The notes beneath the pieces were generated by a model. That model ran no database searches, was not told the origin of the DNA, and was given only the letters and a program-made list of their open reading frames with translations. Both the position numbers and the translations under genes were made by a program. From Strigamia acuminata (taxonomy: Eukaryota), in assembly GCA_949358305.1 (NCBI GenBank), contig OX442314.1, positions 32,364,001 to 32,428,000 on the forward strand: DNA of 64,000 nt, in the 5' to 3' direction. Positions 36,768-52,833 of this stretch are shown piece by piece (within the stretch, counting starts at the first letter, position 1; each line of letters begins with the position of its first letter).

Positions 36768-37424
36768 ATGACTACTACTTCAAGCAGCGGGACCTACTCT
36801 CTTGGTGGGGAGATCTATTGTCAAGTCAATCCATTTCTAGCTGGAGTCTACATCCACCTAAGACGATTTCTGACATACCCGAACGGAAAGCTGTATCCCT
36901 CTCGTGATGGTATGTGCATGAACGTTAAGACATTTTATGATTTTGTGGAACATTGGAAGCAGATAACGAGTGAAATTGCGAATTTAAAAACCAAGAAATC
37001 ATCAACCATTGAGTGTGAAGGTGGTGTTTTAGTCACTATTTCCAAGTCGAAAACTGATGATGTATCTTTGATGATATGTCGTTCATTTGCGCCAGAGAAG
37101 TTTATTCTGCTTTCATATGAACAATGGCGTCAACTCAAGAAGCAGCGATCATCCATATTTTCGGGCATCGATGAAGCTCTGTCAAAGTTGCAAGAGAGCA
37201 ACCTTCAATTTCCAGCTATTCCCGAGGAAACAACTGCAAGTTCATTTGTTACTCCGACCACATCTCAAGCTCCAATTGTTTTAAAAAAGAAAAAGGAGAG
37301 AAAGCAAATGAAGAAGAAACCATATCAGAGACCCATTCCTGGTGTGCATTTTGTGGATTCTTCTGATGAGGATGTCGATTCAAAACCTACCAGTGTACCT
37401 GTCGATACTGATGATGATGAATAG
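36768..37424 (+). CDS. PC4/Sub1-like ssDNA-binding protein (probably a tandem domain) with basic NLS and acidic tail
   Basis: YSLGGEIYCQVNPF..GVYIHLRRF...GKLYPSRDGMCM resembles the PC4 pattern; second degenerate unit ends ILLSYEQWRQL; TATAAA at 36715-36720 favours ATG 36768. Confidence 0.7.
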   Translation: MTTTSSSGTYSLGGEIYCQVNPFLAGVYIHLRRFLTYPNGKLYPSRDGMCMNVKTFYDFVEHWKQITSEIANLKTKKSSTIECEGGVLVTISKSKTDDVSLMICRSFAPEKFILLSYEQWRQLKKQRSSIFSGIDEALSKLQESNLQFPAIPEETTASSFVTPTTSQAPIVLKKKKERKQMKKKPYQRPIPGVHFVDSSDEDVDSKPTSVPVDTDDDE

Positions 37425-37622
37425 ATTTATAGTTAATTTGTTATTTGTATTGGTAGAATAGAAATTGTATACTTTAGTTTAAATTTTTTTTGTACTTATT
37501 TCTTTTTTTTTGTGTTAATTATATAAATAAAATTTGTTTGAATAAGAATACATCTTTTTTCTTTCATTAATTTCTTTAACAAATAAGTTAAGTTGTAATA
37601 AGGGTGTTTGTGTTATATTAGT

Positions 37623-37935
37623 GGAAATGGAGGATAAAACAGGAAGCGAGCGGTGCAAAGTTGTCCTCTGCTATGATTCGTTGAAACCATTTTAGACAAG
37701 TTTCAACATGTCTCATCAATTGCACTGTTTGGAAGGGAGGATAAAACAGAAAGTGAGTGGTGCAAATGTCTCCTCTGCTATGATTCGTTGAAACCATTTT
37801 AGACAAGTTTCAACATGTCTCAGCAATGGCACTGTTTGGAAGGGGGGATAAAACAGGAAGTGAGCGGTGCAAAGGGGAGGAGTCCTCTGCTATAATTTGT
37901 TGAAACCGCTTGGGGGACAAGTTTAGACATGTCTC
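37623..37935 (+). promoter_or_regulatory. Three ~107-114 bp tandem repeats, each with a p53-consensus site and an ETS-like motif, upstream of alkB
   Basis: AGACAAGTTT-CAACATGTCT (37694, 37801) and GGACAAGTTT-AGACATGTCT (37915); followed by ATTGG (37938) and TATATA (about 37964). The repeat is certain; the function is inferred. Confidence 0.7.
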
Positions 37936-38002
37936 CGATTGGACAGCAGAATAGGTTAACTGCTATATATACCGAGCTGATGTTTCTTTTGGATGAAAAA
38001 AC

Positions 38003-38701
38003 ATGGAGAAGACGACAATAGAGCCTGTTTGTTGGAAAGATATTCTCAAGCAGGATTTACACTTGCAGTATGGGCTTCTTTTCAACAAAGAAGTAGCTGA
38101 TTCTACATTTCAAAAGCTGGAAAATGAAATCACATACTATACAGGTAGACTGAGTCAAATCAAGATTTATGGCAAGTGGATCAATATACCGAGACAACAA
38201 GTTGCATTTGGTGATGATGGATTGAAATATTCATTTTCTGGTAATACTTTACCGGTTAAAACTTGGACTCCTCTTTTGCGTGATTTACGAGATGCCGTTC
38301 AGTTTGTTACCGGACATGAATTTAACTTTGTTCTCGTTAATCGTTATGCAAATGGCAACCAGACTATTGGTGAACATCGAGACGATGAGGTGGGACTTCA
38401 TCCAAACGCACCAATAGCGAGCCTGTCTCTAGGACAAAACAGAAACTTTGTTCTTCGTCACGTGTCTCTTAAGCGAAAGTATACTATTCGCAACTCAGTC
38501 TTACCACCAAAGCCGATTTCTCTCGCGTTGGAACACGGTAGCATTCTGCTAATGCACCAACCTACAAACCGTTTTTGGTATCACAGTCTTCCAAAGCAAA
38601 TTTCTGCACTTCATCCGCGAATCAACTTAACTTTTAGAAACATCATTCAAAGTAAGTTCCATTTATTTAATGATATTATTATAAATGAATATTTATTTTA
38701 A
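38003..38701 (+). CDS. alkB: AlkB-family 2OG-Fe(II) dioxygenase, ALKBH2-like
   Basis: IPRQQVAFGD, YSFSG, FNFVLVNRY, HRDDE (HxD), IASLSLG, WYHSLP, RINLTFR (RxxxxxR). Confidence 0.93.
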   Translation: MEKTTIEPVCWKDILKQDLHLQYGLLFNKEVADSTFQKLENEITYYTGRLSQIKIYGKWINIPRQQVAFGDDGLKYSFSGNTLPVKTWTPLLRDLRDAVQFVTGHEFNFVLVNRYANGNQTIGEHRDDEVGLHPNAPIASLSLGQNRNFVLRHVSLKRKYTIRNSVLPPKPISLALEHGSILLMHQPTNRFWYHSLPKQISALHPRINLTFRNIIQSKFHLFNDIIINEYLF

Positions 38702-38714
38702 TTCGTGTTTTAGA

Positions 38715-39374
38715 ATGAATTCGGAACAATTAAAAAACGTAGGTTGTATTATTGACTTTGAGGGATTCCAGTTTGGTCCCGACTTTCTACTCAAGGAGCT
38801 CGGAGTGTGTTTTCTATACAAGGATTCTACTTTAAGTTATCACTTTCGTGTTGGACAATTTGACAAACTAGAACCAAAATGGCAAAAAGTTGCTGCTTGG
38901 TTAAAACGTAATATCCACGGTATGAAGTTTGAAGATGGTCCTGATGATCTACCTCAAAGCTGGATTTCTTTTATCCTCACACCTTTACATATAAATTGTG
39001 TTCAGGAAGCCAACAGACCAATTATTGCATTCAAAGGAGGCCAAATTGAAAAAAATTGGTTAATCAAATGTGACATTCCATACCTCGACCTGGAATCATT
39101 GGGATGTCCAAAATATCAGGACCTTCATTTTAATCTTGATCCTGATTCAAAACCTTTATGTCACCTTCATGAATCCCTACTTCCCTCCAAGTTAATGCAC
39201 TGTCCTCAAGCTGAGTGTCTTTGCTTTAAGGAGTGGTGTATTGAAACTCAAGACCATTCTTATCTCGACGATCTTGAAGCCCTCCTTCATGGAACGGGAA
39301 ATGAAAATGCGAACGGAGATGATGCGGCGAATCCGGGAACGGAAGCAAACCTTTCGCAACTGGCCTGTTTCTAG
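38715..39374 (+). CDS. Putative DEDD/RNase H-fold nuclease-like protein
   Basis: IIDFEGF..F.LKEL (ExoI-like DxE), HG, and C-terminal CHLH..HC; family assignment by motif only. Confidence 0.55.
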   Translation: MNSEQLKNVGCIIDFEGFQFGPDFLLKELGVCFLYKDSTLSYHFRVGQFDKLEPKWQKVAAWLKRNIHGMKFEDGPDDLPQSWISFILTPLHINCVQEANRPIIAFKGGQIEKNWLIKCDIPYLDLESLGCPKYQDLHFNLDPDSKPLCHLHESLLPSKLMHCPQAECLCFKEWCIETQDHSYLDDLEALLHGTGNENANGDDAANPGTEANLSQLACF

Positions 39375-39615
39375 ACACATCGCCGACCCTTCCACCTTAG
39401 CCCGTGCTGGATTCAAATACTTGGGTGAAAATGATCATGTTGAGTGCGTCTACTGTCTCGGTCGATTAAAAGAGTGGAAACGTGGTGACATACCTCTTTT
39501 GGAACATTATTCTTGGTATGCCTATTGTCCATTAATGAGAATTACTTTTGAAAAAGGACTGAATGAAGAGTGGTTGATTTATAAATCCATCTATGGGTTA
39601 GATACACCAGGTTGA
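39289..39615 (+). CDS. Single-BIR inhibitor-of-apoptosis-like protein
   Basis: RKQTFRNWP, LARAGF, CVYC-x16-H-x6-C; no RING domain; overlaps the end of the upstream ORF. Confidence 0.9.
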   Translation: MEREMKMRTEMMRRIRERKQTFRNWPVSRHIADPSTLARAGFKYLGENDHVECVYCLGRLKEWKRGDIPLLEHYSWYAYCPLMRITFEKGLNEEWLIYKSIYGLDTPG

Positions 39616-39644
39616 TAGAAACACCAGATTTTGTAACAATTACT

Positions 39645-40169
39645 TTATTTCTTTGTTTTACTTATTTGTACGATACAATTTTTATCATACAATGTTGACA
39701 TCTTAAAATTAAAAATATGTTTAACAAATTTTGTAACTTTTTTATCATTGTAATATGGATTTCTTGGATTAAATTGATTTTTTATATAATCAAAGCTTTT
39801 TCCTTTACACCTATTATAAATAAAATAAATGCAATAATATCCACATGCGAGACTACACGGTGATTGATAGGTTTGAGTAATCCTGTTGGTTAGTTTACAT
39901 CCAATATTTTGAATAAAAGCAGTAATTTCTTTCGCTGGTGGTTTACCGAACGAATCAAAATATTCAATCGCACCGGGTACTTTCTCATCTCGAAACAATG
40001 CTACCCAATGTTCGCCTGGTTTTGTATGGGGATGAGTATTTACAACAAACGCGCATGTTTTGTTTGTTTGTTGCGATGAGGATAGCAAATCAATTGGATA
40101 TACACCTTTAAAAATTTGCCTCGTCACTGAATTCTTAGATAAAATCTCCGTTATTTGGAGCGTGTTCAT
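39645..40169 (-). CDS. Adenain-like cysteine maturation protease
   Basis: GEHWVAL (His), YFDSFG (Asp), YQ....ACGYYC (Gln, Cys). Confidence 0.93.
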   Translation of the reverse strand: MNTLQITEILSKNSVTRQIFKGVYPIDLLSSSQQTNKTCAFVVNTHPHTKPGEHWVALFRDEKVPGAIEYFDSFGKPPAKEITAFIQNIGCKLTNRITQTYQSPCSLACGYYCIYFIYNRCKGKSFDYIKNQFNPRNPYYNDKKVTKFVKHIFNFKMSTLYDKNCIVQISKTKK

Positions 40170-40177
40170 AGCTTGAG

Positions 40178-41515
40178 TTAAAATTCAGTAATGATATTCC
40201 TCGCTCTATCAATCTCCAGTATGGATTGATATTCCGCCAGTACTAATACGGTTATGGTTGCAGTTAAGGCTTTATTAAATCTCATTTCAATCCTAACATT
40301 TCCTTGTTTTACTAAATTCAAATGTGGTTGACCGGCGGATGCATCTTGCGTTAAATCAAATCCAAATAAAACATTTCCGCCTAAACAATAATCAGTATAC
40401 GAAATGCCTAATCCTAAATCTTTATCTGCTCTATTCATAGTTTGGTATAAGGTAATAAATTCACGAGCTGCTTGTCCTTTTGCAAAATCTGGCTTATATG
40501 GACTCATTGGTACTCCTTTTCCATCCAAAAATACTTGAAGAAAATTTATTCCTTGGTTTTCAAAATTATACGGATTACTGGCATATGATCCGCAGTAGGC
40601 AGTGTTTTTCACAAGACCAATAATCAATCGGGATGGATATTGACCGAGAAATGCATTATCAATCATAGCAGTTTGCGATCCTGTAGCAATTGTAAATGTT
40701 TTAACTTCTACCCTTCTAATGGGATATTTCGCATTACGTTGCTCTAATGCTTGATGATGAGCTAAGAGTACACTAGCGCTAGGAACTATCTTTTTTACAA
40801 ATAAAGTTGCATCATTTATAACTGTTTTATAGGCCGCCCCTGCCTCTTTTGAAATTAAACTAAATGCATCATTTTGTCTAGTAAGTGTAATTCGCAAGTC
40901 AACATTATTTATGAGATAATGTGGTTGAGAAAAGATATCGCAGTGAAGTCTTCCAAACATCTGTAATTTTCCACAATCACCATCCTGCATGAGTCGATGA
41001 TATCGTTTATAAATTCCAAACTCCTCGTTAAAATCTGCTACTGTTGGATCTAAATCATCAAATGATCCTCCTGTATCCTCATAATACATCTCCACTGTTT
41101 TATAACTCTTTTTGGCATCATTTGAAAAACTGAGAATTGTTTCGAGATAACTTCTATAACAATAATTTGAATCGGAAGCTGACACTAGCTTATCATTTAG
41201 TCTAACATCTATTTGACTGAACAATGAATGTAGGAATAAATTTGTAGGAGAAACCTTAGCTGTTTTTGTAATTACAGCCCCAGCACCATCGGTTACAGTT
41301 ACATTTAGTAACAAGTATGTTTGACTCAAGTCAATGTACGTATCAGCAGTACCCTTGATTGAAAAATCTAATGGCTGTCCTGCAGTTACGGCTGTAATTG
41401 GATGGTATTCACTCCAATAATTATCTTCCACAGTTATTTGTGTGAGTGGTAATCCAAAAATGTCTAGTTCTGGAGTCGCGCCTTCGGCAGATGATTCATG
41501 GGGAAATTGCGGCAT
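40178..41515 (-). CDS. Major capsid protein (double jelly-roll)
   Basis: 445 aa; LHSLFSQIDV, YRSYLETIL, NPYNF and FGFDLT typical of Maverick MCP; adjacent to the protease. Confidence 0.9.
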   Translation of the reverse strand: MPQFPHESSAEGATPELDIFGLPLTQITVEDNYWSEYHPITAVTAGQPLDFSIKGTADTYIDLSQTYLLLNVTVTDGAGAVITKTAKVSPTNLFLHSLFSQIDVRLNDKLVSASDSNYCYRSYLETILSFSNDAKKSYKTVEMYYEDTGGSFDDLDPTVADFNEEFGIYKRYHRLMQDGDCGKLQMFGRLHCDIFSQPHYLINNVDLRITLTRQNDAFSLISKEAGAAYKTVINDATLFVKKIVPSASVLLAHHQALEQRNAKYPIRRVEVKTFTIATGSQTAMIDNAFLGQYPSRLIIGLVKNTAYCGSYASNPYNFENQGINFLQVFLDGKGVPMSPYKPDFAKGQAAREFITLYQTMNRADKDLGLGISYTDYCLGGNVLFGFDLTQDASAGQPHLNLVKQGNVRIEMRFNKALTATITVLVLAEYQSILEIDRARNIITEF

Positions 41516-41517
41516 GG

Positions 41518-42000
41518 CTAATCAAATATGTCAGGTCCAAGAAGTGAAGTTTTCCTTTTGCAGGACTTCCTACGCACGTTCTTCTTTGGTCGAGTTCGTC
41601 TCTTAGACTGATTCTTTTGTTTGGTTACACGTCTTTTCTTTTGTTTACCATCCATCCGCTTTTGTTTGCCTCCTTTCTGTACACCAATCTTTTTTAAAAA
41701 ATCCGATTTGGTTCGAACAACCTGATCTTTAAATGCATTTCCAAATTTTCTCTTTTTTACACGCATATCGGAAATTACGTCTAATCCTCTCTTCAAACCA
41801 TACGTTGCTGCATCCAACGCTCCACTTCTCACAAAAGGCTTTACAATTCGAAATGCGTCACTTATAAGTGAACCCAAACCATGTCCTTGTTGATAGCGAG
41901 ATCCTACAAATATAGGAAGATCTGCTCCACCTATTTGCGCATGATTTGAGCAATATCTATCCATGCAGATTTGAGGGTTTAGTTCATAGTGAAATCTCAT
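41518..42000 (-). CDS. Small basic virion core/membrane-active protein candidate
   Basis: QQGHGLGSLISDAFRIVKP amphipathic segment, QxGG motifs and Lys/Arg-rich tail; ATG 42000 lies just after the penton stop. Confidence 0.7.
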   Translation of the reverse strand: MRFHYELNPQICMDRYCSNHAQIGGADLPIFVGSRYQQGHGLGSLISDAFRIVKPFVRSGALDAATYGLKRGLDVISDMRVKKRKFGNAFKDQVVRTKSDFLKKIGVQKGGKQKRMDGKQKKRRVTKQKNQSKRRTRPKKNVRRKSCKRKTSLLGPDIFD

Positions 42001-42004
42001 CTTG

Positions 42005-43135
42005 TCAATCCAATCTCTTCCTGAAGTGTAACGTTGCAACGACACGTCCAAACTCGAATGGTACTTTTTCTCCGGTGTCACCCCTTATAAGCACTTGTAT
42101 GGATTCAAATTGCAATTTTGCCAGCGGTTTATAATGTGGATTTTCAAAAGTTTGGGAGATGTATTGTCCTCGCTCTTTTCCTTGAATCTGTATTATTCTT
42201 AACAGTGGCGCTAAAGTATCCCCAACAATGTTTGGTTGTATTAGATTGCAATACAAGTACATATGATATAGTCCAACTTGTTCATCCATTTTATGAAAAG
42301 CTTCTGTTGTTTTTGTAATTACACGCAAATCATTAAAACCGAGAGTTGATGCCAAGGCTTTATCAAGAACCAACTTGGTGTTAATTGGCAAGTTAATCTC
42401 AATTTTCTTTGATGATATATTAAAACTAAATGGTGCTTTATCAATAACTACGAGTGCTTTAAGATTTAAAGCATCTACTAATTGATCAGGTCCCGAATAA
42501 TTTCCAGGTTTCAAGCTTTGTTTCTGTTTACCATCAGTCTCCTTTTCAATTGATAAATTCCAATTTTTATCATTGATAAGATTTGGTGTGAGACGTGGAG
42601 AATCACGAGCCGTCTTGGATTCATCAGCGTAAAAATCATCATCTTCATCTTTCACAAAACCTAACACATATGCCAGCCTCTGCGGGATCATGACTTGAAA
42701 CTTAGGCATAATTATTATTTCAAATCTTAAACGAGTGGAATTCCAGTGAAATTTAATTCCTAATTTTTGCAATGCTTTGTCAAGATCTTTAACTTTCTCA
42801 TCTTTCTTGGTTGGAGATGTTAAATTATTATTTAAAAAGTTAAGAAACTCGGATATTAACTTATCCTGCGGTAGGGATGCATCCACAAATTTGAATGGTG
42901 GAAATTTGATTGCATTGACTTCATTCTTCAGTATTCGAAAATCGGCACCTCGGGGCAATAGAGCAGTACTCCAGCTTCTTGGATAAAGGAATTCAACCAG
43001 ACCCACTTCCCAATTTTCATCTAAATTAATATATGATGGTAATTGCGTATGAAATTCCGTCAATGTATTATTCGGGTAATAATCTAAGCTGCTATTTGAT
43101 GGAAGACTCACATAGAAACTCTGTTCCGGATCCAT
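42005..43135 (-). CDS. Minor capsid protein (penton) with central insertion
   Basis: N-terminal FYVSLPSNSS..PNNT..WEVGL and C-terminal YCNLI..VGD..APLLR..TLHFR, typical of Maverick penton. Confidence 0.88.
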   Translation of the reverse strand: MDPEQSFYVSLPSNSSLDYYPNNTLTEFHTQLPSYINLDENWEVGLVEFLYPRSWSTALLPRGADFRILKNEVNAIKFPPFKFVDASLPQDKLISEFLNFLNNNLTSPTKKDEKVKDLDKALQKLGIKFHWNSTRLRFEIIIMPKFQVMIPQRLAYVLGFVKDEDDDFYADESKTARDSPRLTPNLINDKNWNLSIEKETDGKQKQSLKPGNYSGPDQLVDALNLKALVVIDKAPFSFNISSKKIEINLPINTKLVLDKALASTLGFNDLRVITKTTEAFHKMDEQVGLYHMYLYCNLIQPNIVGDTLAPLLRIIQIQGKERGQYISQTFENPHYKPLAKLQFESIQVLIRGDTGEKVPFEFGRVVATLHFRKRLD

Positions 43136-43188
43136 GCCTGCTCACTTCTGATTGCATCATTGAGGTGACATCACCTCTTATATGAACA

Positions 43189-43788
43189 ATGTTTCATCAT
43201 CCATTTACTGCTATTATTTCTGGAAGTTCGGGTACGGGCAAAACGGAGATATGTAAGAAAATTATCCGAAATGCGAGTAAAATGATTGATCCACCCCCAC
43301 AAGATATTTGCTGGTACTATTCAATATGGCAACAGTGGTATATCGAATTTCCCAATGTGCAGTTCCACGAAGGATTACCCAATTTAAAGACTTTGGATTC
43401 ATCAACGAGAAAGCTTTTCATCATTGACGATCAAATGGAAAATTTAAATCAAGAGATTGGGTTATTGTGGACTAAATATTCGCACCATACGAGCACTAGT
43501 GTATTTTATTTATGCCAAAACATATTTCATCAAAGCAAATATCAACGAACTTTATCTTTAAATAGTCACTATTTAATCCTTTTTCGAAATCCAAGGGATA
43601 TGAATCAAATCGCAAAAGTAGGGAGTCAAATGTTCCCACAGCGAGGTAAATTTTTCATGTCAGCATTTAACGATGCAACAGCGCAAAGTTTTGGGTATTT
43701 ATTAATTGATTTGAAACCGGATACACCCCAAGATCAAAGAGTGAAGACTAATATATTTCCGGATGAATATACTATAGTTTACATATAG
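43189..43788 (+). CDS. FtsK/A32-like genome-packaging ATPase
   Basis: Walker A GSSGTGKT, Walker B LFIIDD, SHH..Q motif. Confidence 0.93.
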   Translation: MFHHPFTAIISGSSGTGKTEICKKIIRNASKMIDPPPQDICWYYSIWQQWYIEFPNVQFHEGLPNLKTLDSSTRKLFIIDDQMENLNQEIGLLWTKYSHHTSTSVFYLCQNIFHQSKYQRTLSLNSHYLILFRNPRDMNQIAKVGSQMFPQRGKFFMSAFNDATAQSFGYLLIDLKPDTPQDQRVKTNIFPDEYTIVYI

Positions 43789-43797
43789 ATTCCACCA

Positions 43798-44133
43798 ATG
43801 AAACGAGTAAGACGTCACGCCAATGTGCTCCGGGCCATTCCCGATTTAAATAAGAGACAAATCAAGGATTTTCTCAAACATTCTAACGATGATTTCTGTA
43901 AAACCATCTGTGAAATTTGTTTAAACATTATAAAAGGTACAATTAAGTTAGGAGCAAATCAGAAACAATCACTTTATCGAAAGAGAAGGTTGTTAAGAAA
44001 ATTGGCCACTCCTACATCTTCATTCAAACAAAGACGGAACTTGGTCATTCAAACTGGTGGATTTTTACCGCAACTACTCGCCCCAATTATTGGAGCATTA
44101 GTAGGTAAACTAATTAGTAAACAAAATGGCTAG
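43798..44133 (+). CDS. Small basic Maverick protein of unknown function
   Basis: CEICLNIIKG, basic middle region, QTGGFLP followed by a hydrophobic tail. Confidence 0.75.
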   Translation: MKRVRRHANVLRAIPDLNKRQIKDFLKHSNDDFCKTICEICLNIIKGTIKLGANQKQSLYRKRRLLRKLATPTSSFKQRRNLVIQTGGFLPQLLAPIIGALVGKLISKQNG

Positions 44134-45016
44134 GAAAATGGTTTTAGTACCGCAGGAAATGATGTCATCTTTACAATATTCGAAAAAGAACTATGATGAT
44201 ATTGATCCGCAATATCAAAAATTGCAAAAGATTGAATCGTCAATAGAGGAAATTTTCAATGATGCAAACTTGAATGATGAAATGAAAGCTAAACTTATAT
44301 CGACACTTCAATCGCAATTTGGAAACTTTAAACAAAAGCTAATTAAACAATTAAATGCACCAAAAACTGTTACTATATCACCTCCAACTCAATCCGCATC
44401 TCCACCTCAATCACCACCACCAATTGTTTCGCACTTATCCACATCTCAATCGCCATTTGTTCTTCAACCATTGGATAAAATAATGTTGAATAAAATGTCA
44501 AAAGATCAAAAGAAACAAGCTATTGCGTTAATGGAAGTTATGAATTTGAATCCAAGGTTGAAATGGAGCAATCTATCGGAAATGATTATAGATGGAGTAA
44601 AAATTCCAAATACAACCAAAGCTGATCTTATAAACTATACCATAAGAAACCGCCCGAAGCAAAATGTAATTCCGATTGGTCAGTCAGAGTATATTAAAAT
44701 TTTGATTGATTCAAATGTACCAAAAGAATACATTATAAACAAGAATTTAAGAAAGGAATTAATTAGACCGATGAGCACTTCAACTCCCACAATTACTAGG
44801 GACATTCATAGAGAGTCATTGAGTGGAAATGACTCCATCATCAATAATCAAACACTATCAGATCAAGATCAAGAGCTGTCAGACTTAGAGAACACTTGGG
44901 CACATTACGGAACACCAAACAAATCTTTAAGATTTCAACGAGATCAAGACGAGAGTTTATTCAAATATAAAACACCAAGTTCCGGTTCACAAAAAAGAAA
45001 AAAAATAAAGAAATAA
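44126..45016 (+). CDS. Maverick protein of unknown function
   Basis: 296-aa ORF between the ATPase cluster and integrase; coiled-coil N-terminus, C-terminal basic NLS. Confidence 0.75.
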   Translation: MARKMVLVPQEMMSSLQYSKKNYDDIDPQYQKLQKIESSIEEIFNDANLNDEMKAKLISTLQSQFGNFKQKLIKQLNAPKTVTISPPTQSASPPQSPPPIVSHLSTSQSPFVLQPLDKIMLNKMSKDQKKQAIALMEVMNLNPRLKWSNLSEMIIDGVKIPNTTKADLINYTIRNRPKQNVIPIGQSEYIKILIDSNVPKEYIINKNLRKELIRPMSTSTPTITRDIHRESLSGNDSIINNQTLSDQDQELSDLENTWAHYGTPNKSLRFQRDQDESLFKYKTPSSGSQKRKKIKK

Positions 45017-45056
45017 ACAGTATAACTAGGAGCATAGAACAAAGTTAGAAAAACAT

Positions 45057-46151
45057 ATGGCAGAGCAACAATTGAAAGATATCTACTTTAATCCAAGAAA
45101 TCCTGCCGGATTTAGTAGTCGAGATAAATTGTTTCATGCTGCACGTAATCGAGGGATACAAGTTACCAGAAAAGAAATTCAAGATTGGTTACAAGGATTA
45201 GATTCTTATACTTTACATAAACCAGTCCGATACAAGTTTCAACGCTCCAAGACTATTGTACCATCCATTAATTACCAATGGCAATCGGATTTGGTTGAAG
45301 TTGGAAACATAGCAAAGGAAAATGATGGAAATAGATATTTAATGACCGTCATTGATGTATTTTCACGATATGCGTATATTGAAGCATTACCAACAAAGTC
45401 TGCGCAACATATTATAAAAGCTTTTAAAACAATTCTAAAACGTGCCAAGACTAAACCCCTCTACCTGCAGACGGATAAGGGAAAAGAATACTTAAACAAA
45501 GCATTTCAGGAATTCTTACAGAAAAATAACATCAAACATTTTACTAGTGAAAATGATGATATTAAATGTTCACTTTGTGAAAGATTGAATCGAACCATAA
45601 AGCAGAAAATGTGGACTTATTTCACATATACCGGCAGACATCGATATATTGATCAACTGCAAACATTTATAGATTCATATAATCATAGCGTTCATCGAAC
45701 ATTAGGAATGAAACCTGTTGATGTTACGAAAGAGAAAGAACCGGCAGTGTTTTACCACTTATATGGTGATACAATAAATAAAAGACATAAGAAATTTAAG
45801 TTTAATATTGGTGATGGTGTTAGAATATCAAAATCTAAAGTGGTTTTCCGAAAGGGATACAGGGGAAGCTATTCGCATCAAATTTATTATATTATCAATC
45901 GATTAATCCGACCACCAGAAGTTGTCTATATGCTTAAAGATTACAATGATGAACCTTTACTCGGTACATTTTATGAATTTGAGTTGCAGAAAATTAATAA
46001 ACCCAAGGATGCGGAGTATGCTGTAGAAACAGTATTAAAGTCTAAAGGCAAAGGTGCGAATAAATTATATTTTGTAAAGTGGATGGGTTATGGAGATGAA
46101 TTTAATTCCTGGATTCCCGCTGATGACTTACGAGACAACCCACCATTATAA
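45057..46151 (+). CDS. int: Retroviral-like DDE integrase with C-terminal chromodomain
   Basis: WQSDL, IDVFSR, QTDKGKEY, CERLNRTIK; chromodomain YAVETVL...YFVKWMGY...NSWIP. Confidence 0.95.
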   Translation: MAEQQLKDIYFNPRNPAGFSSRDKLFHAARNRGIQVTRKEIQDWLQGLDSYTLHKPVRYKFQRSKTIVPSINYQWQSDLVEVGNIAKENDGNRYLMTVIDVFSRYAYIEALPTKSAQHIIKAFKTILKRAKTKPLYLQTDKGKEYLNKAFQEFLQKNNIKHFTSENDDIKCSLCERLNRTIKQKMWTYFTYTGRHRYIDQLQTFIDSYNHSVHRTLGMKPVDVTKEKEPAVFYHLYGDTINKRHKKFKFNIGDGVRISKSKVVFRKGYRGSYSHQIYYIINRLIRPPEVVYMLKDYNDEPLLGTFYEFELQKINKPKDAEYAVETVLKSKGKGANKLYFVKWMGYGDEFNSWIPADDLRDNPPL

Positions 46152-46207
46152 TTTGTATACACACATAAATAATAAAGATATATTTCGATCATTGCATATG
46201 CACTTGT

Positions 46208-46594
46208 TTATTTAACAATAGTTACATTCGAATGGAGAAAAGAGATTGCTCGAGTTAATCTAATCCATTGATACCAATTTAAATTAATTCCTTTGATGGA
46301 TGGACCAGCTCTGCTAAACTGTCTGATATCAAATATTACATCATCTCCACGTTTGCAAATATTTAGTTGTTTTCCATTTCCTAGATCAAAAGTGGAATTG
46401 CATCCATTGGATACAGGCAACATTTTCACTACATCCACAGTTGGTTGGATTAAGGTTGGAGGAGAGTACATCAGAATCATGATTTGTAGAATAACGATAC
46501 AACATCCAACAACAGAGAAACTTCCAGTCGTAATCCATAATTTATGATTTTCAAATAAGAGCATCAGGTTTTTCTGTAATCCTGCTCTGTCCAT
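46208..46594 (-). CDS. PC4-like domain protein with an N-terminal hydrophobic helix
   Basis: FDLGNGKQLNI...VIFDIRQF...PSIKGINLNWYQWIRL (PC4 pattern) preceded by FSVVGCCIVILQIMILMY. Confidence 0.7.
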   Translation of the reverse strand: MDRAGLQKNLMLLFENHKLWITTGSFSVVGCCIVILQIMILMYSPPTLIQPTVDVVKMLPVSNGCNSTFDLGNGKQLNICKRGDDVIFDIRQFSRAGPSIKGINLNWYQWIRLTRAISFLHSNVTIVK

Positions 46595-46774
46595 GGTTTG
46601 TGAAAGAATGACACGATAATATATATAATAATGGTTTTATTTTATAAAAATAATAATAATAATAATAATAATTTCATTTACAAAATAAATTACATGATAA
46701 GATAATGATATAATAATAATAAAAATATGTAACAGTTTTGTTTACAAAATAAATAAATAAATAAATAACACTTT

Positions 46775-49700
46775 TTACAAAATAATATTGTAATGCCCAT
46801 GAGCTAGAGTCGTTACACCATCACTCAAAATGTACCTTTTATCATCTCCAGCAGACAAAGCAATTTTCTTTTGCAAAATTGTATATAATTCGTGATCGAA
46901 AGAGCGAATTTGATTTGATGAACGTGCGTTTTCTATTTTGTTGAATAGACACTCTTTGTAGTCTTTGTGGCGAAGTTGATTTCGCACACTTCGAGGTACA
47001 CCTTTTGCTGTCTTTTTTTCTTGATCTTTTGTTTTAAACGAATACATTTTACATCGAAGTCCGAGAAATTCCTGTATGCATTTCCCGGACATTTCGTCTT
47101 TAAACTTTCCAATTACCTTTTTATTCTTTGTGCTGTATAGGGAGTGTGTGGAAGGATAATCTGAAGTGTCGAATTTTTCTAAATCTTTTTTCATGTCTGC
47201 ATAAATATCATCTGTTTCGATATTATACGTTAAACTATCCGTATCAGTAAAAAGCAACCTGGCTTTGTTCCCATATGTTTTTTTGATATGATTATAATGA
47301 AAATCATACATAAGGACTTTGCTAAGTTCTAGAATGCAAAAGCCCACGTATATGGGTCTATTTAATAGGATATTTCTTTTCTTTAAATGTACACCTACAA
47401 GATCTTCATTGAAAATCTTGAACTCGTGAAAAGTTGGTGAATTTAATAATTTAGTCACTCGCTCTGGATTTTGCACCAACCTCACATCAACACGTTTCCT
47501 GACGGATTCGAGCGACTTCCCAAAAACACTATTATTCATCAATTTGAAGAAGTCCTTTTGAAAACTATTGGTTGCTTGTTTTCGCAACTCTGTATTTAAG
47601 CCAATGTACTTTGCAAGCCAATCAGATTGTTCAAATTCCAGAATTTTATGAATTTTCGTGACTTTCATTCCCAATTTCAAATACAATTGGAGGTTTTGGT
47701 AGTGGATAATATATTTTGTTTTGTTAGCAAGGTTAGGAACTAATTTGGGAGATGGGTGATGTTTTTGTTCTAGTAGGGTAAGGTGTTCGAGACTGTAGGG
47801 TGATAACATGTTTTCAGTTACTGTTAGTCGTTCGGGAGCAAGAGGATAATCGTTATGGGAATCATGGAGTTCTTTGGGATATTCTAAATCTACTTCCAAA
47901 ATATACCCCTTTGTGCTGGTTTCACTAATGCTTAACACATCAAAATCATCGGTGGGCGGTATCCATTTGAAATTATGAGTTGGTAAATATTGGTTCATTG
48001 CCCAGCCGTACAAGTTATTCGCATCGAGATAGATGATGTGATTGGATGGAAGGTCCTCTTTATAATCATCTAAATCTTTGTGATTGGCTTTAGCAAATCG
48101 ATGGCTAATCATTGATATACCACCGCGAATACCATTTTCAATAAAAACATGCATAAGCGGATCCGTTAACAGTTCTAATTTGACATCCGTTAGTTTCAGA
48201 CATGCCCCCCACGAGAGACCGGGTGTTGTGAAATAATTACAACAATCCAATTTATAAGTCTCTAAACAAATCGATCGAAAATTTTCAAAGACGTCAGCTA
48301 GCAGCAAAACGTCAGTCAAAACATAAAGGTCTTGATAAACACCGAGATTTTGGATATTGAATTTATCCCACACTTTCTTTGCATGAATATAGTCAGATTC
48401 GGATACACTTTGCTCACTTAGAGTACTGTAAAATTCGGATATGGGAGGAAGTTGGACTTCGTTGAATTTGATCCAAGAGTCCATGTACTCATATGGAAAA
48501 ATACCTTTCCGTAATAACAATCCGATTTCATCAGGATTGAAATGTTGATTCATTATTCGGAATTGGTTTGGATCACTTTTGAATAAATTAGCTACTAATG
48601 ATTCTAATGATGCATTCATAAATTGCAGACTATCGAGAAATCGAAGATTTCCGAGTGAAAAAGTAATATATCGTTGCATGTTGGTTGGAATACAGCTTAT
48701 TTCACGATCTTTATACTTTCCAATTCCCTGCATTAATAAATGTGAATCATAATTTTTTAAGTTATGAAACACAACAGGAATTTGTTTAGATGTTCTGCGA
48801 TACATCAGATTACAAAAATTATGAGCAGGGCCACGGAACTTGCCAGTAGCATGATCATGGTCCCTTACTTTCTTTTCATTTTTTAAAAATGTTTTATTAC
48901 AAATGTGACAAGATGTAGCACTTTCCATAAACAATTTTTCTTCATTCGATAAATCCATTGGAAGATTTAAAGCCATAAGCTTTTCCAACTCTACTTCCAA
49001 TTTAGTAATATGATCAAGAAAATGATCAACTGCATTTTCACCTCGATATACCGATGGAGGTTGGTGAAGTTTACCTTCTGTATTGATAACAGCATAAGCA
49101 TAACCCGATGGTACGTGCTTGGACACTTTTTGCACTTTGCTTGTCTCATCTTTTTCAACATTTTTAACGAGCAGTGACTCAAAATCCGCATATATAACAA
49201 ATGGGACTTTAAATTGTTTATGGAAATCATTAAAGTGCATCCATTTTGTTTCATCGGTGGGGTATTTAACTTTTTGAAGCCCGTAGGTTGAGCAATACTC
49301 CAAGTGATCTTTTAGTATCCGTTCTGACGAACATCTATGCAGACAATATTTACAATAGTGAGCTAATTCATTGTGATGTGTTAAGGAATGTAACAGTTTA
49401 TTTATATTTTTAATCCAACAATAATGTTGGGTTTGATCATTAGCAAAAAGTAACAAATTTATTTGGGTTTTATGTTCCAATTTGCTAATGTATAGGGGAA
49501 ACACTTCTTTTTCGAAACCGAACACATGAACACTAATAGAATTCATGGTTTCAAACTTGGGGATTTGTTGAAGAGTCATTGGGAATGAAAGTCCGGTTAA
49601 ATCTAAAGTGTTTCGGTACTTGGTATAATGTGAAACACGTTCAGGGTGGGAAGGTGCAGGATGCAGAGCAGCTAAAACACTCCAGAGAAAACACAAAGAA

Positions 49701-51199
49701 TCTTGATTTTGTACATTTATTATTGCTTTTTTGTCTGCTAAAAATTTGGGGAGTGCGATGTAAGATCTTCCAGCCAATGGGCGATATCTACCAATATTCA
49801 CATGCATCTCTACCACCGCTTCAAATACCCAACCACTACCATCTCGTTGAAATTCGGCGCAAGAACGTTTAATTTTCTCGTATGCCTCCAATAATTGGTT
49901 CTCGAGATCCGATTCAACAAGCGCAATATAGCAAATGCTTCGAAAACATGCAATGGTTTCCGTATCACCACTCTGTGATGATCGAGTGAAATGTATTTTA
50001 ACGGCGATATAATATTTTACCGCTTTCTTTTTAATCAATTGGAAGTTTAAAATCCGTTTCACTCGAGTGTGGTGTTGAATGAAAAAATGATTTAAATCAC
50101 CACAATCATCACCGGGAATTTTATACGTGTTGACGTTTCCCTCTAATGCGTCAACACAAGGATCATCGCAGGGTAGTGGTTGTGGATGTGGAACGGCGGG
50201 TAAAGGAAGAATGTGAACTTGCATGTGTTTAAGTAAATTATTATTTGAAGAAAAAGACTTTTTGCAAACATTGCAAGTAACTGTCTCTTTGCTGCGATTG
50301 TGAATATTTTTAACATGTCGCAGCATGTCATCTTTACGCTTAAACATATTTGAACATATTCCACACTTGAATGTGCTTTTGGAAAGAGTATGTAAATGAA
50401 GAATATGTCGTTTCAAAGTAGAATTACAAGAAAAATTTTTTTTGCAGTACTCACATGAATGTACTTTCTGTCCACCGCCAATTTGTTGCATTAAAGTCAT
50501 AGGAGATGGGGGATTGACGATGCGGCTTGTTCCTGCTTGCTGCAAATTTGGTTGGTAGTGGTACACAGGAACTGAAGACTCACACGATATCGATAGATTG
50601 CACGATTGAGATGAGGCAGGTTCAGATTGATTGTCGCAGGTTGGAGTTGGCACGAGTTGAGATTGGATGACGTAGGATGGAGATGGTACATGTTGAGACG
50701 GAATGATGATGGTGGGTGGTGAGAGTGGATAAATTGGAGAATGATTATAAATCCATGGAGAATCATTGTATCCATTTTCTTCATCCGGTAGAGGATTGGG
50801 TGTGTTAACTTGAGGAAATAGAGATTCTTCAATTTCTGTAAGCATCTCTTCAAATTCACAAATATTATGTTGCACCACTTGATTATGGATTTGATGGTTA
50901 ATCATGAGAGGAACGGGAGACTCACATGATGTCAATGGATTGCAAGATTGAGATGATGCAGGTTGAGATTGGAAGACGCAGGTTGGAGATTGCACGTGTT
51001 GAGAGTGGTTGATGATGGTAGGCGATGAGAGTGGATAAATCGGAGAATGATTGTAAATCCAACATGGAGAATCATTGGATCCATTTTCTTCATCATCAAC
51101 ATCTAGCAGTGGATTAGGCGTGTTTATAGGAGGAAAGAGAGATTCTTCAATCTCCATAAACAACTCTTCAAATTCAGACTGAATGTGGTTAAATTCCAT
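46775..51199 (-). CDS. polB: Protein-primed family B DNA polymerase with N-terminal repeats, three C2H2 fingers and an endonuclease VII-like insert
   Basis: YADFES (ExoI), FHNLKNYD (ExoII), DANNLYG, KLMNNSVFGK, TDTDS; DHDH..G..RG..H..CN insert; TATA and CCAAT positions favour ATG 51199 over 51271. Confidence 0.96.
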   Translation of the reverse strand: MEFNHIQSEFEELFMEIEESLFPPINTPNPLLDVDDEENGSNDSPCWIYNHSPIYPLSSPTIINHSQHVQSPTCVFQSQPASSQSCNPLTSCESPVPLMINHQIHNQVVQHNICEFEEMLTEIEESLFPQVNTPNPLPDEENGYNDSPWIYNHSPIYPLSPPTIIIPSQHVPSPSYVIQSQLVPTPTCDNQSEPASSQSCNLSISCESSVPVYHYQPNLQQAGTSRIVNPPSPMTLMQQIGGGQKVHSCEYCKKNFSCNSTLKRHILHLHTLSKSTFKCGICSNMFKRKDDMLRHVKNIHNRSKETVTCNVCKKSFSSNNNLLKHMQVHILPLPAVPHPQPLPCDDPCVDALEGNVNTYKIPGDDCGDLNHFFIQHHTRVKRILNFQLIKKKAVKYYIAVKIHFTRSSQSGDTETIACFRSICYIALVESDLENQLLEAYEKIKRSCAEFQRDGSGWVFEAVVEMHVNIGRYRPLAGRSYIALPKFLADKKAIINVQNQDSLCFLWSVLAALHPAPSHPERVSHYTKYRNTLDLTGLSFPMTLQQIPKFETMNSISVHVFGFEKEVFPLYISKLEHKTQINLLLFANDQTQHYCWIKNINKLLHSLTHHNELAHYCKYCLHRCSSERILKDHLEYCSTYGLQKVKYPTDETKWMHFNDFHKQFKVPFVIYADFESLLVKNVEKDETSKVQKVSKHVPSGYAYAVINTEGKLHQPPSVYRGENAVDHFLDHITKLEVELEKLMALNLPMDLSNEEKLFMESATSCHICNKTFLKNEKKVRDHDHATGKFRGPAHNFCNLMYRRTSKQIPVVFHNLKNYDSHLLMQGIGKYKDREISCIPTNMQRYITFSLGNLRFLDSLQFMNASLESLVANLFKSDPNQFRIMNQHFNPDEIGLLLRKGIFPYEYMDSWIKFNEVQLPPISEFYSTLSEQSVSESDYIHAKKVWDKFNIQNLGVYQDLYVLTDVLLLADVFENFRSICLETYKLDCCNYFTTPGLSWGACLKLTDVKLELLTDPLMHVFIENGIRGGISMISHRFAKANHKDLDDYKEDLPSNHIIYLDANNLYGWAMNQYLPTHNFKWIPPTDDFDVLSISETSTKGYILEVDLEYPKELHDSHNDYPLAPERLTVTENMLSPYSLEHLTLLEQKHHPSPKLVPNLANKTKYIIHYQNLQLYLKLGMKVTKIHKILEFEQSDWLAKYIGLNTELRKQATNSFQKDFFKLMNNSVFGKSLESVRKRVDVRLVQNPERVTKLLNSPTFHEFKIFNEDLVGVHLKKRNILLNRPIYVGFCILELSKVLMYDFHYNHIKKTYGNKARLLFTDTDSLTYNIETDDIYADMKKDLEKFDTSDYPSTHSLYSTKNKKVIGKFKDEMSGKCIQEFLGLRCKMYSFKTKDQEKKTAKGVPRSVRNQLRHKDYKECLFNKIENARSSNQIRSFDHELYTILQKKIALSAGDDKRYILSDGVTTLAHGHYNIIL

Positions 51200-51301
51200 G
51201 ATACAAACAGAACCTAGCACTTGCAAGAAGTGAAGAGAAGAGAGAAGGGAATTGCAAGTATATATAGCCATTACTAGTTACTCATTGGTTAAGATAACTA
51301 C

Positions 51302-51737
51302 CCAATAATATCCCTCCTTTGGTTAAAAGTAGCCTAAGGATCCTTTGAAAATTTGGGAAAAACAACAACAAGGTACTTAAGTAAAGAAAAACAAGGGTCC
51401 TTTGAAAATTTGGGAAAAACAACAACAAGGTACTTAAGTAAAGAAAAACAAGGGTCCTTTGGAAAAAACAACAACAAGGTACTTAAGTAAAGAAAAACAT
51501 TAACAAATAATAGCCTAGGGCACATTGATTGAATGATAAGACTGATTGATTGAAGCAATTAGTCACCCCCACTTAGCTCTCCCCTTATCTCCCCCTCTCC
51601 TTATCTCCCCCTCCTCTTATCTCCCCCTCCCCTTATCTTCCCCTCCCCTTATCTCCCCCCCACTTAACCCTCACCACCCCCTCCCCCACCCCCCTAACCG
51701 TCAACCGCTGGCCCAGGATCCCCATAAACCCACTACT
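51302..51737 (-). repeat. Polinton right TIR (436 bp)
   Basis: Reverse complement of 36203-36639. Confidence 0.95.
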
Positions 51738-52833
51738 GATTCTTATTTGAATAGAAAGTTTTGAGGAGGTAAAGATCTAATCATCATTCTAGTTATATTT
51801 GTCGACCGACTGCCATGAATGTGTGACTGGTAAGGTCTTCTCCATGGCAGCCTGGGGACTGGTTACCGTGGGGTGGGAAGCATACTCACTTAAATAAGAC
51901 AAGAAACTCCAGATTGTTGGTTGTTGGCCTTTATTAGTTTCGTTGTTTAGGGGTTGGAGACTCCCATCTACCCACACGTGGGTGTTGTTGCGAAAGCACT
52001 TTTTTCTAGTTCTAATTCTAACAGTACACACTTGTTTTACATTTTAAAATGAATCATTATTTCAGCTTGCCCAGTATTCTTTCTCATCAATTGAAAACAA
52101 AGTGTTGATGTTTGTCATCAAGGAAACACGTGGAACTCAAAATCTAAAGCATGATCTAGATTTGCCCGTATTACAGGATCTCATCATATGGAGAGAGAAT
52201 AAAGTTTACTTATTCACATATGCTCAACACAGTAATGTATGAGTCAATAGTTAAAGCATTATTAACAGTATGTTTGCAGAATGTTCATTTTGTTCTTAAT
52301 TAACACCGTTTATTTCAACACATCTAAAAGTACATGGTGTATCCAAATCTGCTCGTTTAAAACGATACAGGGTCATTAATTGATGACACCAAAATGAAAA
52401 CCACCGTTACGGATTAAAGATTGGTGCAATTTTTGTCTACAAAGATTAGCATTCACTATATTTGATTTTTAAAATATATTAACTACATATAATTTAAAAT
52501 AAGGAAGTTTATTTATACTGTTCATATTTTTTAATCTGATATTACAGAATTTTAGCTTGCAGTTATTGAAACATAAGTCTGATGGTAACATTTTTCAAAC
52601 AACCAACTTGGGGATAAATTGTGCGGAACAACAAAAATGTCAATTTGAAAAGATTTCTCAAACACCAGTGATTCTGAAAAAACAAAATTATACTGTAGCC
52701 CAGGTAAAGCATGCTACTACAATTTAAATAGTAATTATAAATAATATTGCATGGCAGATTTATGGGGACAACTAATAGGGAGGAGGTAAATCTGAATGGT
52801 GCAAGTGTGTCACGAAAGGTCCAGTGTAAATCT

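Follow-up and report, generated by a model that had tools for sequence, protein, structure and literature searches.

The window, by which we mean the whole 64-kb stretch of DNA analyzed here, contains an apparently intact Polinton/Maverick (adintovirus-like) element of 15.5 kb with AGTAGT ends (Table 1). Its terminal inverted repeats are 437 nt long and 99.5% alike, with the AG/AGT ends of Polinton/Maverick elements, and it is bracketed by the corresponding 6-bp target duplication (GATTCT at 36197-36202 and 51738-51743). The open frames include polymerase, integrase-chromodomain, ATPase, protease, and capsid-like genes. A 1498-aa ORF is colinear (tblastn) with polymerase-sized ORFs of capsid-linked loci; a direct PolB Pfam match was not found for it, and we take it to be the polymerase from its context and its motifs. 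The integrase (rve, E 7e-19, plus a chromodomain) completes the polymerase B and integrase pair of this class of elements. A Peptidase_C5 match (E 4e-7) identifies the cysteine protease gene, the packaging ATPase shows a weak IVa2/A32 match (E about 0.002), and a 445-aa ORF that matches F54H12.2-like proteins is presumably the capsid. The ATPase, protease, and major and minor capsid genes form a block that was also seen in related loci, and relatives of the capsid-like and AlkB proteins of the element come from animals, which points to an animal host.

Several further features of the window were recorded. The N-terminus of the polymerase ORF (46775-51271) is greatly extended, and the extension includes C2H2 zinc fingers, a segment resembling endonuclease VII, and an internal repeat of roughly 300 bp; since the first ATG of the ORF and the TATA element overlap, the true start probably lies further downstream. 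A second PC4-like gene is located at 46208-46594, and both PC4-like genes are weak Pfam matches. The terminal repeats (36281-36361 and 51579-51659) carry five 16-bp units with GATAAG (GATA-like) in a G-rich context, as well as a 57-bp tandem. Outside the element, positions 26108-30919 encode an intact Copia-type polyprotein in which a methyl-CpG-binding domain (PF01429, E 4.7e-9) separates the integrase from the reverse transcriptase.

Table 1. Coordinates of the element, its cassette, and the associated promoter features in the window
Feature	Position	Strand	Remarks
Polinton/Maverick element	36203..51737	.	AGTAGT ends
ETS-like (CAGGAAGTG) and G-rich box before PC4-like gene	36674..36707	+	Same segment as in tandem units, without p53 20-mer
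PC4-like gene	36768..37424	+	PF02229, E 6e-5, below curated cut-off
Three tandem promoter units (107, 107, about 114 bp)	37626..37953	+	Each with ETS-like segment and p53-type 20-mer
p53-consensus site 1	37694..37713	.	AGACAAGTTTCAACATGTCT, 19/20
p53-consensus site 2	37801..37820	.	AGACAAGTTTCAACATGTCT, 19/20
p53-consensus site 3	37915..37934	.	GGACAAGTTTAGACATGTCT, 20/20, closest to TATA box
Inverted CCAAT box (ATTGG)	37938..37942	-	Between site 3 and TATA
TATA element GCTATATATAC	37962..37972	+	Identical to TATA before polymerase gene
ALKBH2-like demethylase gene	38003..38701	+	PF13532, E 2.5e-28
Predicted short intron	38652..38713	+	GTAAGT ... TTTTAG
Predicted DEDDh 3'-5' exonuclease with zinc site	38715..39374	+	Fold closest to arenavirus nucleoprotein exoribonuclease
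Single-BIR (IAP-type) gene	39289..39615	+	PF00653, E 1.5e-19; overlaps nuclease gene end
Polymerase promoter	51258..51292	-	CCAAT and GCTATATATAC TATA element, without p53 site; internal control

A cassette of demethylase, nuclease, and BIR genes

The first cassette gene encodes a protein with 46-55% identity to its best 120 ALKBH2-like matches. The protein aligns to human ALKBH2 structures (E about 1e-62) and has the HxD...H and RxxxxxR motifs in place. ALKBH2 homology stops near 38647, and the tail of the open frame is probably intron sequence. A TATAAAT at 38680, inside the predicted intron, may serve as a separate promoter for the nuclease gene; one sister variant has an 8-nt deletion at 38681. 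No AATAAA was found on the plus strand within the cassette, and ATTAAA is present at 38729 and 39465. The three genes may accordingly be expressed from a single promoter or from two. The predicted splicing (38652-38717) would end alkB at a stop codon that overlaps the start codon of the nuclease gene, and overlapping stop and start codons are an arrangement known from termination-reinitiation.

The second gene had been called a nuclease in the earlier note, which described the whole as a repair and anti-apoptosis cassette. Neither a meaningful Pfam match nor a match in the word-index search was found for this protein, and a profile search placed it in a family of 2852 cluster representatives. 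The structure modeled from 115 sequences reached a pLDDT of 93.6, compared with 36 for the single-sequence model. In a Foldseek comparison with the PDB, the arenavirus nucleoprotein exoribonucleases, i.e., the C-terminal DEDDh domain (4o6i, 3q7c, and 4g9z), ranked ahead of RNase T and ERI3 (best E 2.7e-5), at only about 17% identity and a TM of about 0.5. The profile alignment pairs the HG, CxxH, and HC motifs of the nuclease with those of the arenavirus enzyme, and D14, E28, C149, H152, and C163 are conserved in 105 to 115 of the 115 aligned sequences. An RNase H-like fold is combined with an ExoI DxE, an ExoII acid, and an ExoIII H...D/E motif, as in DEDDh enzymes (D14, E16, E112, H162, and E167), with position 16 varying (Q/D/E) across the family. 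The catalytic roles of these residues and the activity itself are assigned by analogy. RNase T follows closely behind the arenavirus match (E 5e-4), so either RNA or DNA could be the substrate. Other structural relatives occur in a Drosophila adintovirus and in ichnoviruses.

These models indicate that the label of nuclease is probably right and that a counter-defense function would fit at least as well as repair. The nuclease of the "repair cassette" was thus borne out, while the name appears too narrow because the fold resembles that of an immune-suppressing viral exoribonuclease. With this assignment, a large and widespread Polinton protein family that has a conserved zinc-site pattern but no Pfam match (2852 clusters) gains a predicted function.

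Three p53-type sites in the cassette promoter

The promoter ahead of the cassette is the second one counted inward from the left end of the element, and the sites described here lie 1.5 kb inside the element. All three consist of two RRRCWWGYYY half-sites with zero spacer and with C4 and G7 intact, which is the layout of a p53-family response element; the positions and scores claimed for them in the earlier note all checked. The only mismatch in sites 1 and 2 is the first base of the second half-site; site 3 has none and is, as had been claimed, the best fit. The order proposed for the sequences that follow (inverted CCAAT, TATA, and the alkB ATG) was found as placed: TATATATA starts at 37964, 29 bp past the end of site 3, and the ATG is at 38003. 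p53 proteins from fly to human, p63, and p73 share one specificity in which C4 and G7 weigh most and the outer positions little, as given by Brandt et al. (PMC2807882), and consequently the single mismatch in sites 1 and 2 should be tolerated. By the same token, the paralogs are indistinguishable from sequence. The half-site AGACATGTCT is one base off AGACATGTCC, the half-site that human and Xenopus p53 bind most tightly in the measurements given there (PMC2807882).

Sites of this quality are rare. The three sites are the only zero-spacer matches with both C/G cores intact and three or fewer mismatches in the 64-kb window. With up to two mismatches allowed, the window has 7 matches, compared with 1.72 on average and at most 6 in shuffled sequence. 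Composition predicts 6.7e-4 perfect sites for a whole element and 2.2e-5 for the 578-bp intergenic region, and none arose in Markov-simulated element sequence (2 x 2 Mb). No p53 site was found at the polymerase, integrase, capsid, or PC4 genes of the element or in its terminal inverted repeats.

The three copies do not count as independent evidence, since they were multiplied by tandem duplication (period 107, with the third unit 114 further on) and represent a single event. Between units 1 and 2, 9 of the 107 bases have changed, and all 9 lie outside the 20-mer. Selective conservation of the 20-mer was nevertheless rejected, because the whole 52-bp block at 37664-37715 is identical between these two units and no site-specific conservation is seen. 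The ETS-like AGGAAGT is altered in units 1 and 2. The earlier note had also claimed that a segment of the unit recurs before the PC4 gene. It does, in that 36643-36719 is 82% like unit 3, but the p53 20-mer is absent there.

Contigs cover the element deeply in three runs from a single organism and fall into several variant groups. The main variant in the window's own species differs at 1 position across 37793-38121. Among short contigs matched at 80% likeness, one joint has five other letters in place of the start of the first half-site, which would break the core; another has the ETS-like segment repeated at a short period; and a third may be either a unit that lacks the 20-mer or a variant PC4 promoter. 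From these joints, some sister variants in the same species may alter the p53-type sites.

Nuclease-gene promoters in a second host and other Polintons

Several bacterial genome bins (G001, G002, G003, and others; L114-L141) contain Polinton-like contigs, apparently as eukaryotic contamination. We scanned 13 bins with Polinton contigs (46.8 Mb, 7.8 Mb of it in G002) for the consensus. Six perfect sites were found, three of them off contigs with Polinton genes. Both perfect sites of G002 lie upstream of orthologs of the cassette nuclease, at distances of 402 and 440 bp (L169 and L170). With one mismatch allowed, G002 has 15 sites versus 9 in the reversed control; of its 15, 7 fall on contigs that carry Polinton genes or share Polinton end or promoter sequence.

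Contigs with nuclease homologs numbered six in G002, and none were found in the other 12 bins; the homologs were listed independently of the sites, but after the pattern matches had been seen. Three of the six have a site within 1 kb upstream, with 0, 0, and 1 mismatch, compared with 1 of 702 one-kb tiles of other Polinton loci (P about 2-6e-5, counting two lineages, since L169 and L176 share promoter islands and were counted as one). All of this cross-host support comes from one bin and one host and amounts to one replicate with two lineages. No site was found on the other three contigs, of which one passes into unrelated sequence about 245 bp upstream and the remaining two are internal gene fragments. 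The earlier note had proposed conservation of the sites in related elements as a test, and they do recur at the promoter of the orthologous nuclease gene, on 3 of 6 contigs and in two lineages.

These G002 loci are distant from the element in the window. No DNA similarity was detected between them and the window promoter, and their nucleases are 21-29% identical to that of the window and 39-41% identical among themselves. A second, weaker site lies close by in both L169 and L170, and the L169 sites are flanked by ETS-like, CRE-like, and CCAAT motifs. The L169 and L174 promoters align only over two short islands (42 and 52 bp) and an 18-bp match, and the 42-bp island holds the site. In L176, a Bcl-2 remnant (PF00452, E 5e-13) lies between the site and the nuclease gene, in parallel to the BIR gene in the window. 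The related ends L173 and L220 have weaker sites, and in L169, L173, and L174 the sites lie about 0.6-1.4 kb inside an AGTAGT/TGTAGT-type end. The gene class that recurs behind the site is a nuclease gene with an apoptosis-inhibitor-like gene. L169, L170, and L174 have a short first exon, with a GT donor like that in the window, ahead of the nuclease gene, and a palindromic, high-copy MITE-like insertion occupies L169:3820-4095 within the Polinton end.

Most of the Polinton DNA that we sampled is without sites, and p53 sites are no general feature of Polinton core regions. The 81 capsid-linked loci (66 clusters, 439 kb) yielded no site with up to one mismatch and 2 with two mismatches, versus a shuffle mean of 2.4, and spacers of 1-13 bp gave no enrichment in these loci. 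None of the 81 has alkB, BIR, or PC4 and one has the nuclease; this negative result is uninformative for cassette promoters. The 57 integrase-linked loci gave one 1-mismatch site, inside a capsid remnant. No site with 0-1 mismatch lies within 1 kb in five nuclease-bearing loci with other gene contexts (L015, L096, L099, L100, and L103). alkB was found in 0 of the 81 capsid-linked and 0 of the 57 integrase-linked loci, and among the loci sampled the p53-alkB link itself is therefore seen in the window's family only. An AlkB alignment matched three giant-virus-like loci, all without p53 sites, and three AlkB matches in bin G003 are off Polinton-gene stretches. Several individual sites were set aside as chance: that of L171/L125, inside a capsid coding remnant; that of L103, which has a core mismatch and overlaps an ORF end; that of L184, with a core mismatch; and the perfect sites in G006, G007, and G011, on contigs without Polinton genes. 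A perfect site on a polymerase-bearing contig in another bin (L155) is uncertain, with surroundings that look like decayed coding DNA.

Possible roles of a p53-type promoter in the element

To our knowledge, what wakes integrated animal Polintons, and whether they act as proviruses, is unsettled in the field. We consider it reasonably probable, judging from sequence, that the three 20-mers switch on a protective module in response to the p53 family. The sites are real and recurrent and are probably functional. A host protein of the p53/p63/p73 type would bind the 20-mers and activate the adjacent ALKBH2, exonuclease, and BIR genes, so that the Polinton would read a host damage or infection alarm and answer it with the module. 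The demethylase would repair alkylated nucleic acid, the exonuclease is predicted to remove nucleic-acid danger signals, and the apoptosis-inhibitor-like BIR protein would let the cell survive. Duplicating the ETS-plus-p53 unit in tandem may have provided higher gain. The sites, how rare they are, which genes follow them, and their recurrence before the nuclease gene of a second host are observed; we infer which protein binds, that it activates rather than represses, that this promoter expresses all three genes together, and what the enzymes act on. The proposal that host p53 induces AlkB, nuclease, and IAP thus fits the specificity of the p53 family and the recurrence of sites before a nuclease ortholog and a Bcl-2 remnant, while its alkB part concerns this family only.

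Elements of such a circuit have been described elsewhere. The human ALKBH2 promoter shows a TP53 ChIP signal and a predicted site at -190; this cellular gene, of the same enzyme family as the Polinton gene, is under reported p53 control (PMC2920031). The Polinton gene shares only about 50% identity with animal ALKBH2, and therefore simple carry-over of a host promoter seems unlikely; as a sole explanation, carry-over also fails for the sites before alkB-less cassettes in the second host. Transposon-borne p53 response elements (zebrafish EnSpm-N6_DR, LINE1, Alu, and LTRs) are likewise mobile DNA with consensus p53 sites, but as described in PMC3485254, they supply sites to neighboring host genes, whereas the Polinton sites lie at the promoter of the element's own genes. 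Predicted p53 sites also occur close to the genome end of a small DNA virus, adeno-associated virus; those sites are loose, lie inside the terminal repeat, and are linked to toxicity (PMC11760972), in contrast with the consensus 20-mer at a gene promoter in the Polinton. Adintoviruses and animal Polintons with the same gene set, and with Bcl2 and IAP homologs, have already been reported (Starrett 2021, PMC8502044); the main text of that paper does not mention p53, alkB, PC4, or a promoter, and its supplements may annotate alkB or the nuclease. No report of p53 control of a Polinton promoter was found in a literature search judged from titles, with most subscription journals outside its scope. 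The p53-type promoter is new for Polintons, and p53-responsive promoters of viruses and transposons were already known.

A first alternative is that a p53-family protein does bind but that the cue is developmental, following the timing of a p63/p73-like protein active in germline or epithelium, or that the effect is repressive, with p53 helping to silence the element. The near-identical sequences bound by p53, p63, and p73 (PMC2807882) leave room for this reading, but we regard it as unlikely: the sites are TATA-proximal, have ETS and CCAAT partners, and stand ahead of genes that counter p53-type outcomes, and an element would hardly be expected to keep and multiply a purely silencing site.

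The sites might instead be bound by a different tetrameric factor whose C..G cores recur every 10 bp, or by a protein that the element encodes. CP2/Grainyhead is one such factor, and its sites match those of the Polinton in period and resemble them in their flanks. The cores of the 10 Polinton sites bear on this point: of their 20 half-sites, 3 have the CCTG core that speaks for such a factor, but 6 have CATG, 11 have CAAG/CTTG, and none has CCRG/CYGG. Given that CATG is the core preferred by p53 (PMC2807882), these counts favor the p53 family over CP2/Grainyhead. Similar repeats occur in phage-like contigs, where there is no p53, and the polymerase ORF carries C2H2 fingers that could belong to a binder; a replication factor of the element, however, would be expected to act at the termini, and the inverted repeats are without a site. 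We therefore judge a binder outside the p53 family to be decidedly unlikely.

The earlier note had also raised a possible damage-inducible provirus switch, analogous to SOS sensing by prophages. In such a reading, damage-activated p53 would turn on the cassette, and one of its products, or the survival of the cell, would license replication and mobilization of the whole provirus, as SOS does in prophages. The precedent is the Rta promoter of Epstein-Barr virus, which shows a TP53 ChIP signal and is p53-bound after MNNG (PMC3869928); there, a promoter of a latent DNA virus responds to host p53 after alkylation or oxidative damage, much as the element in the window would, but Rta is a lytic transactivator and its promoter is a true switch, whereas the Polinton sites precede putatively protective genes only, in an integrated element. 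Tectivirus GIL01, a relative of Polintons, is reportedly a temperate linear-DNA virus with lytic control through a LexA-type damage circuit; there a bacterial circuit acts on replication and virion genes, while the Polinton has a predicted activator-type site on accessory genes. Within the window's element, the cassette promoter is the second inside the left end and has its TATA element in common with the polymerase promoter, and the sites of the second host lie about 0.6-1.4 kb inside an element end, all of which would suit a switch. The polymerase promoter shares TATA and CCAAT but is without a site, as are the integrase, capsid, and PC4 genes, and none of the three downstream genes is a recognizable transactivator; the perfect site on the polymerase-bearing contig L155 would help this view but lies in apparently decayed coding DNA. 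Control of a master regulator or of replication or virion genes, of the SOS-prophage or EBV Rta type, was thus not observed, and any such effect would have to take an indirect route. We consider a master switch very unlikely.

That a chance 20-mer was multiplied neutrally through tandem duplication is extremely unlikely and largely refuted already, although the copies go back to a single event, sister variants seem to be altered at the site, and 3 of the 6 perfect sites in the 46.8 Mb of bins are off Polinton contigs. Against it, only 2e-5 sites were expected in this intergenic region, and two further lineages also have sites ahead of the orthologous gene.

If the protective module does respond to the p53 family, a mobile element has likely made the guardian of the host genome a trigger for the nuclease and anti-apoptotic genes that it carries. 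With a promoter of the p53 type found again in distant lineages, the waking of Polintons can be tied to a concrete host signal and a concrete readout and becomes testable. In a broader scheme, to which we give only slight credence, an animal Polinton lineage would have repeatedly wired host p53 into an early-gene circuit, the counter-defense module (an arenavirus-like exoribonuclease plus IAP or Bcl-2, and in the window's element also ALKBH2) being the first step from dormant transposon to replicating virus. If true, this circuit would be the long-missing induction signal for animal Polintons.

Viral contigs were searched as well. Single-protein locus scans of these contigs gave no matches, and a search with one strong site pattern returned eight loci (six phage-like, one baculovirus-like, and one parvovirus) and no Polinton. 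With 6 of 8 matches phage-like, the 20-mer class can evidently arise without p53, and the pattern alone proves nothing. In the baculovirus-like contig (L088:7600-8260), an intergenic region is dense with AAACATGTTC-type repeats and has one perfect p53-consensus 20-mer. The parvovirus contig (L084, 4432 nt, with NS1 and capsid Pfam matches) has at positions 161-210 a CRE-like TGACGTCA, a perfect zero-spacer site, a third half-site, and a TATA-like box. This row lies just inside the terminal hairpin and ahead of the rep gene, and it is a candidate p53-driven first promoter in a parvovirus.
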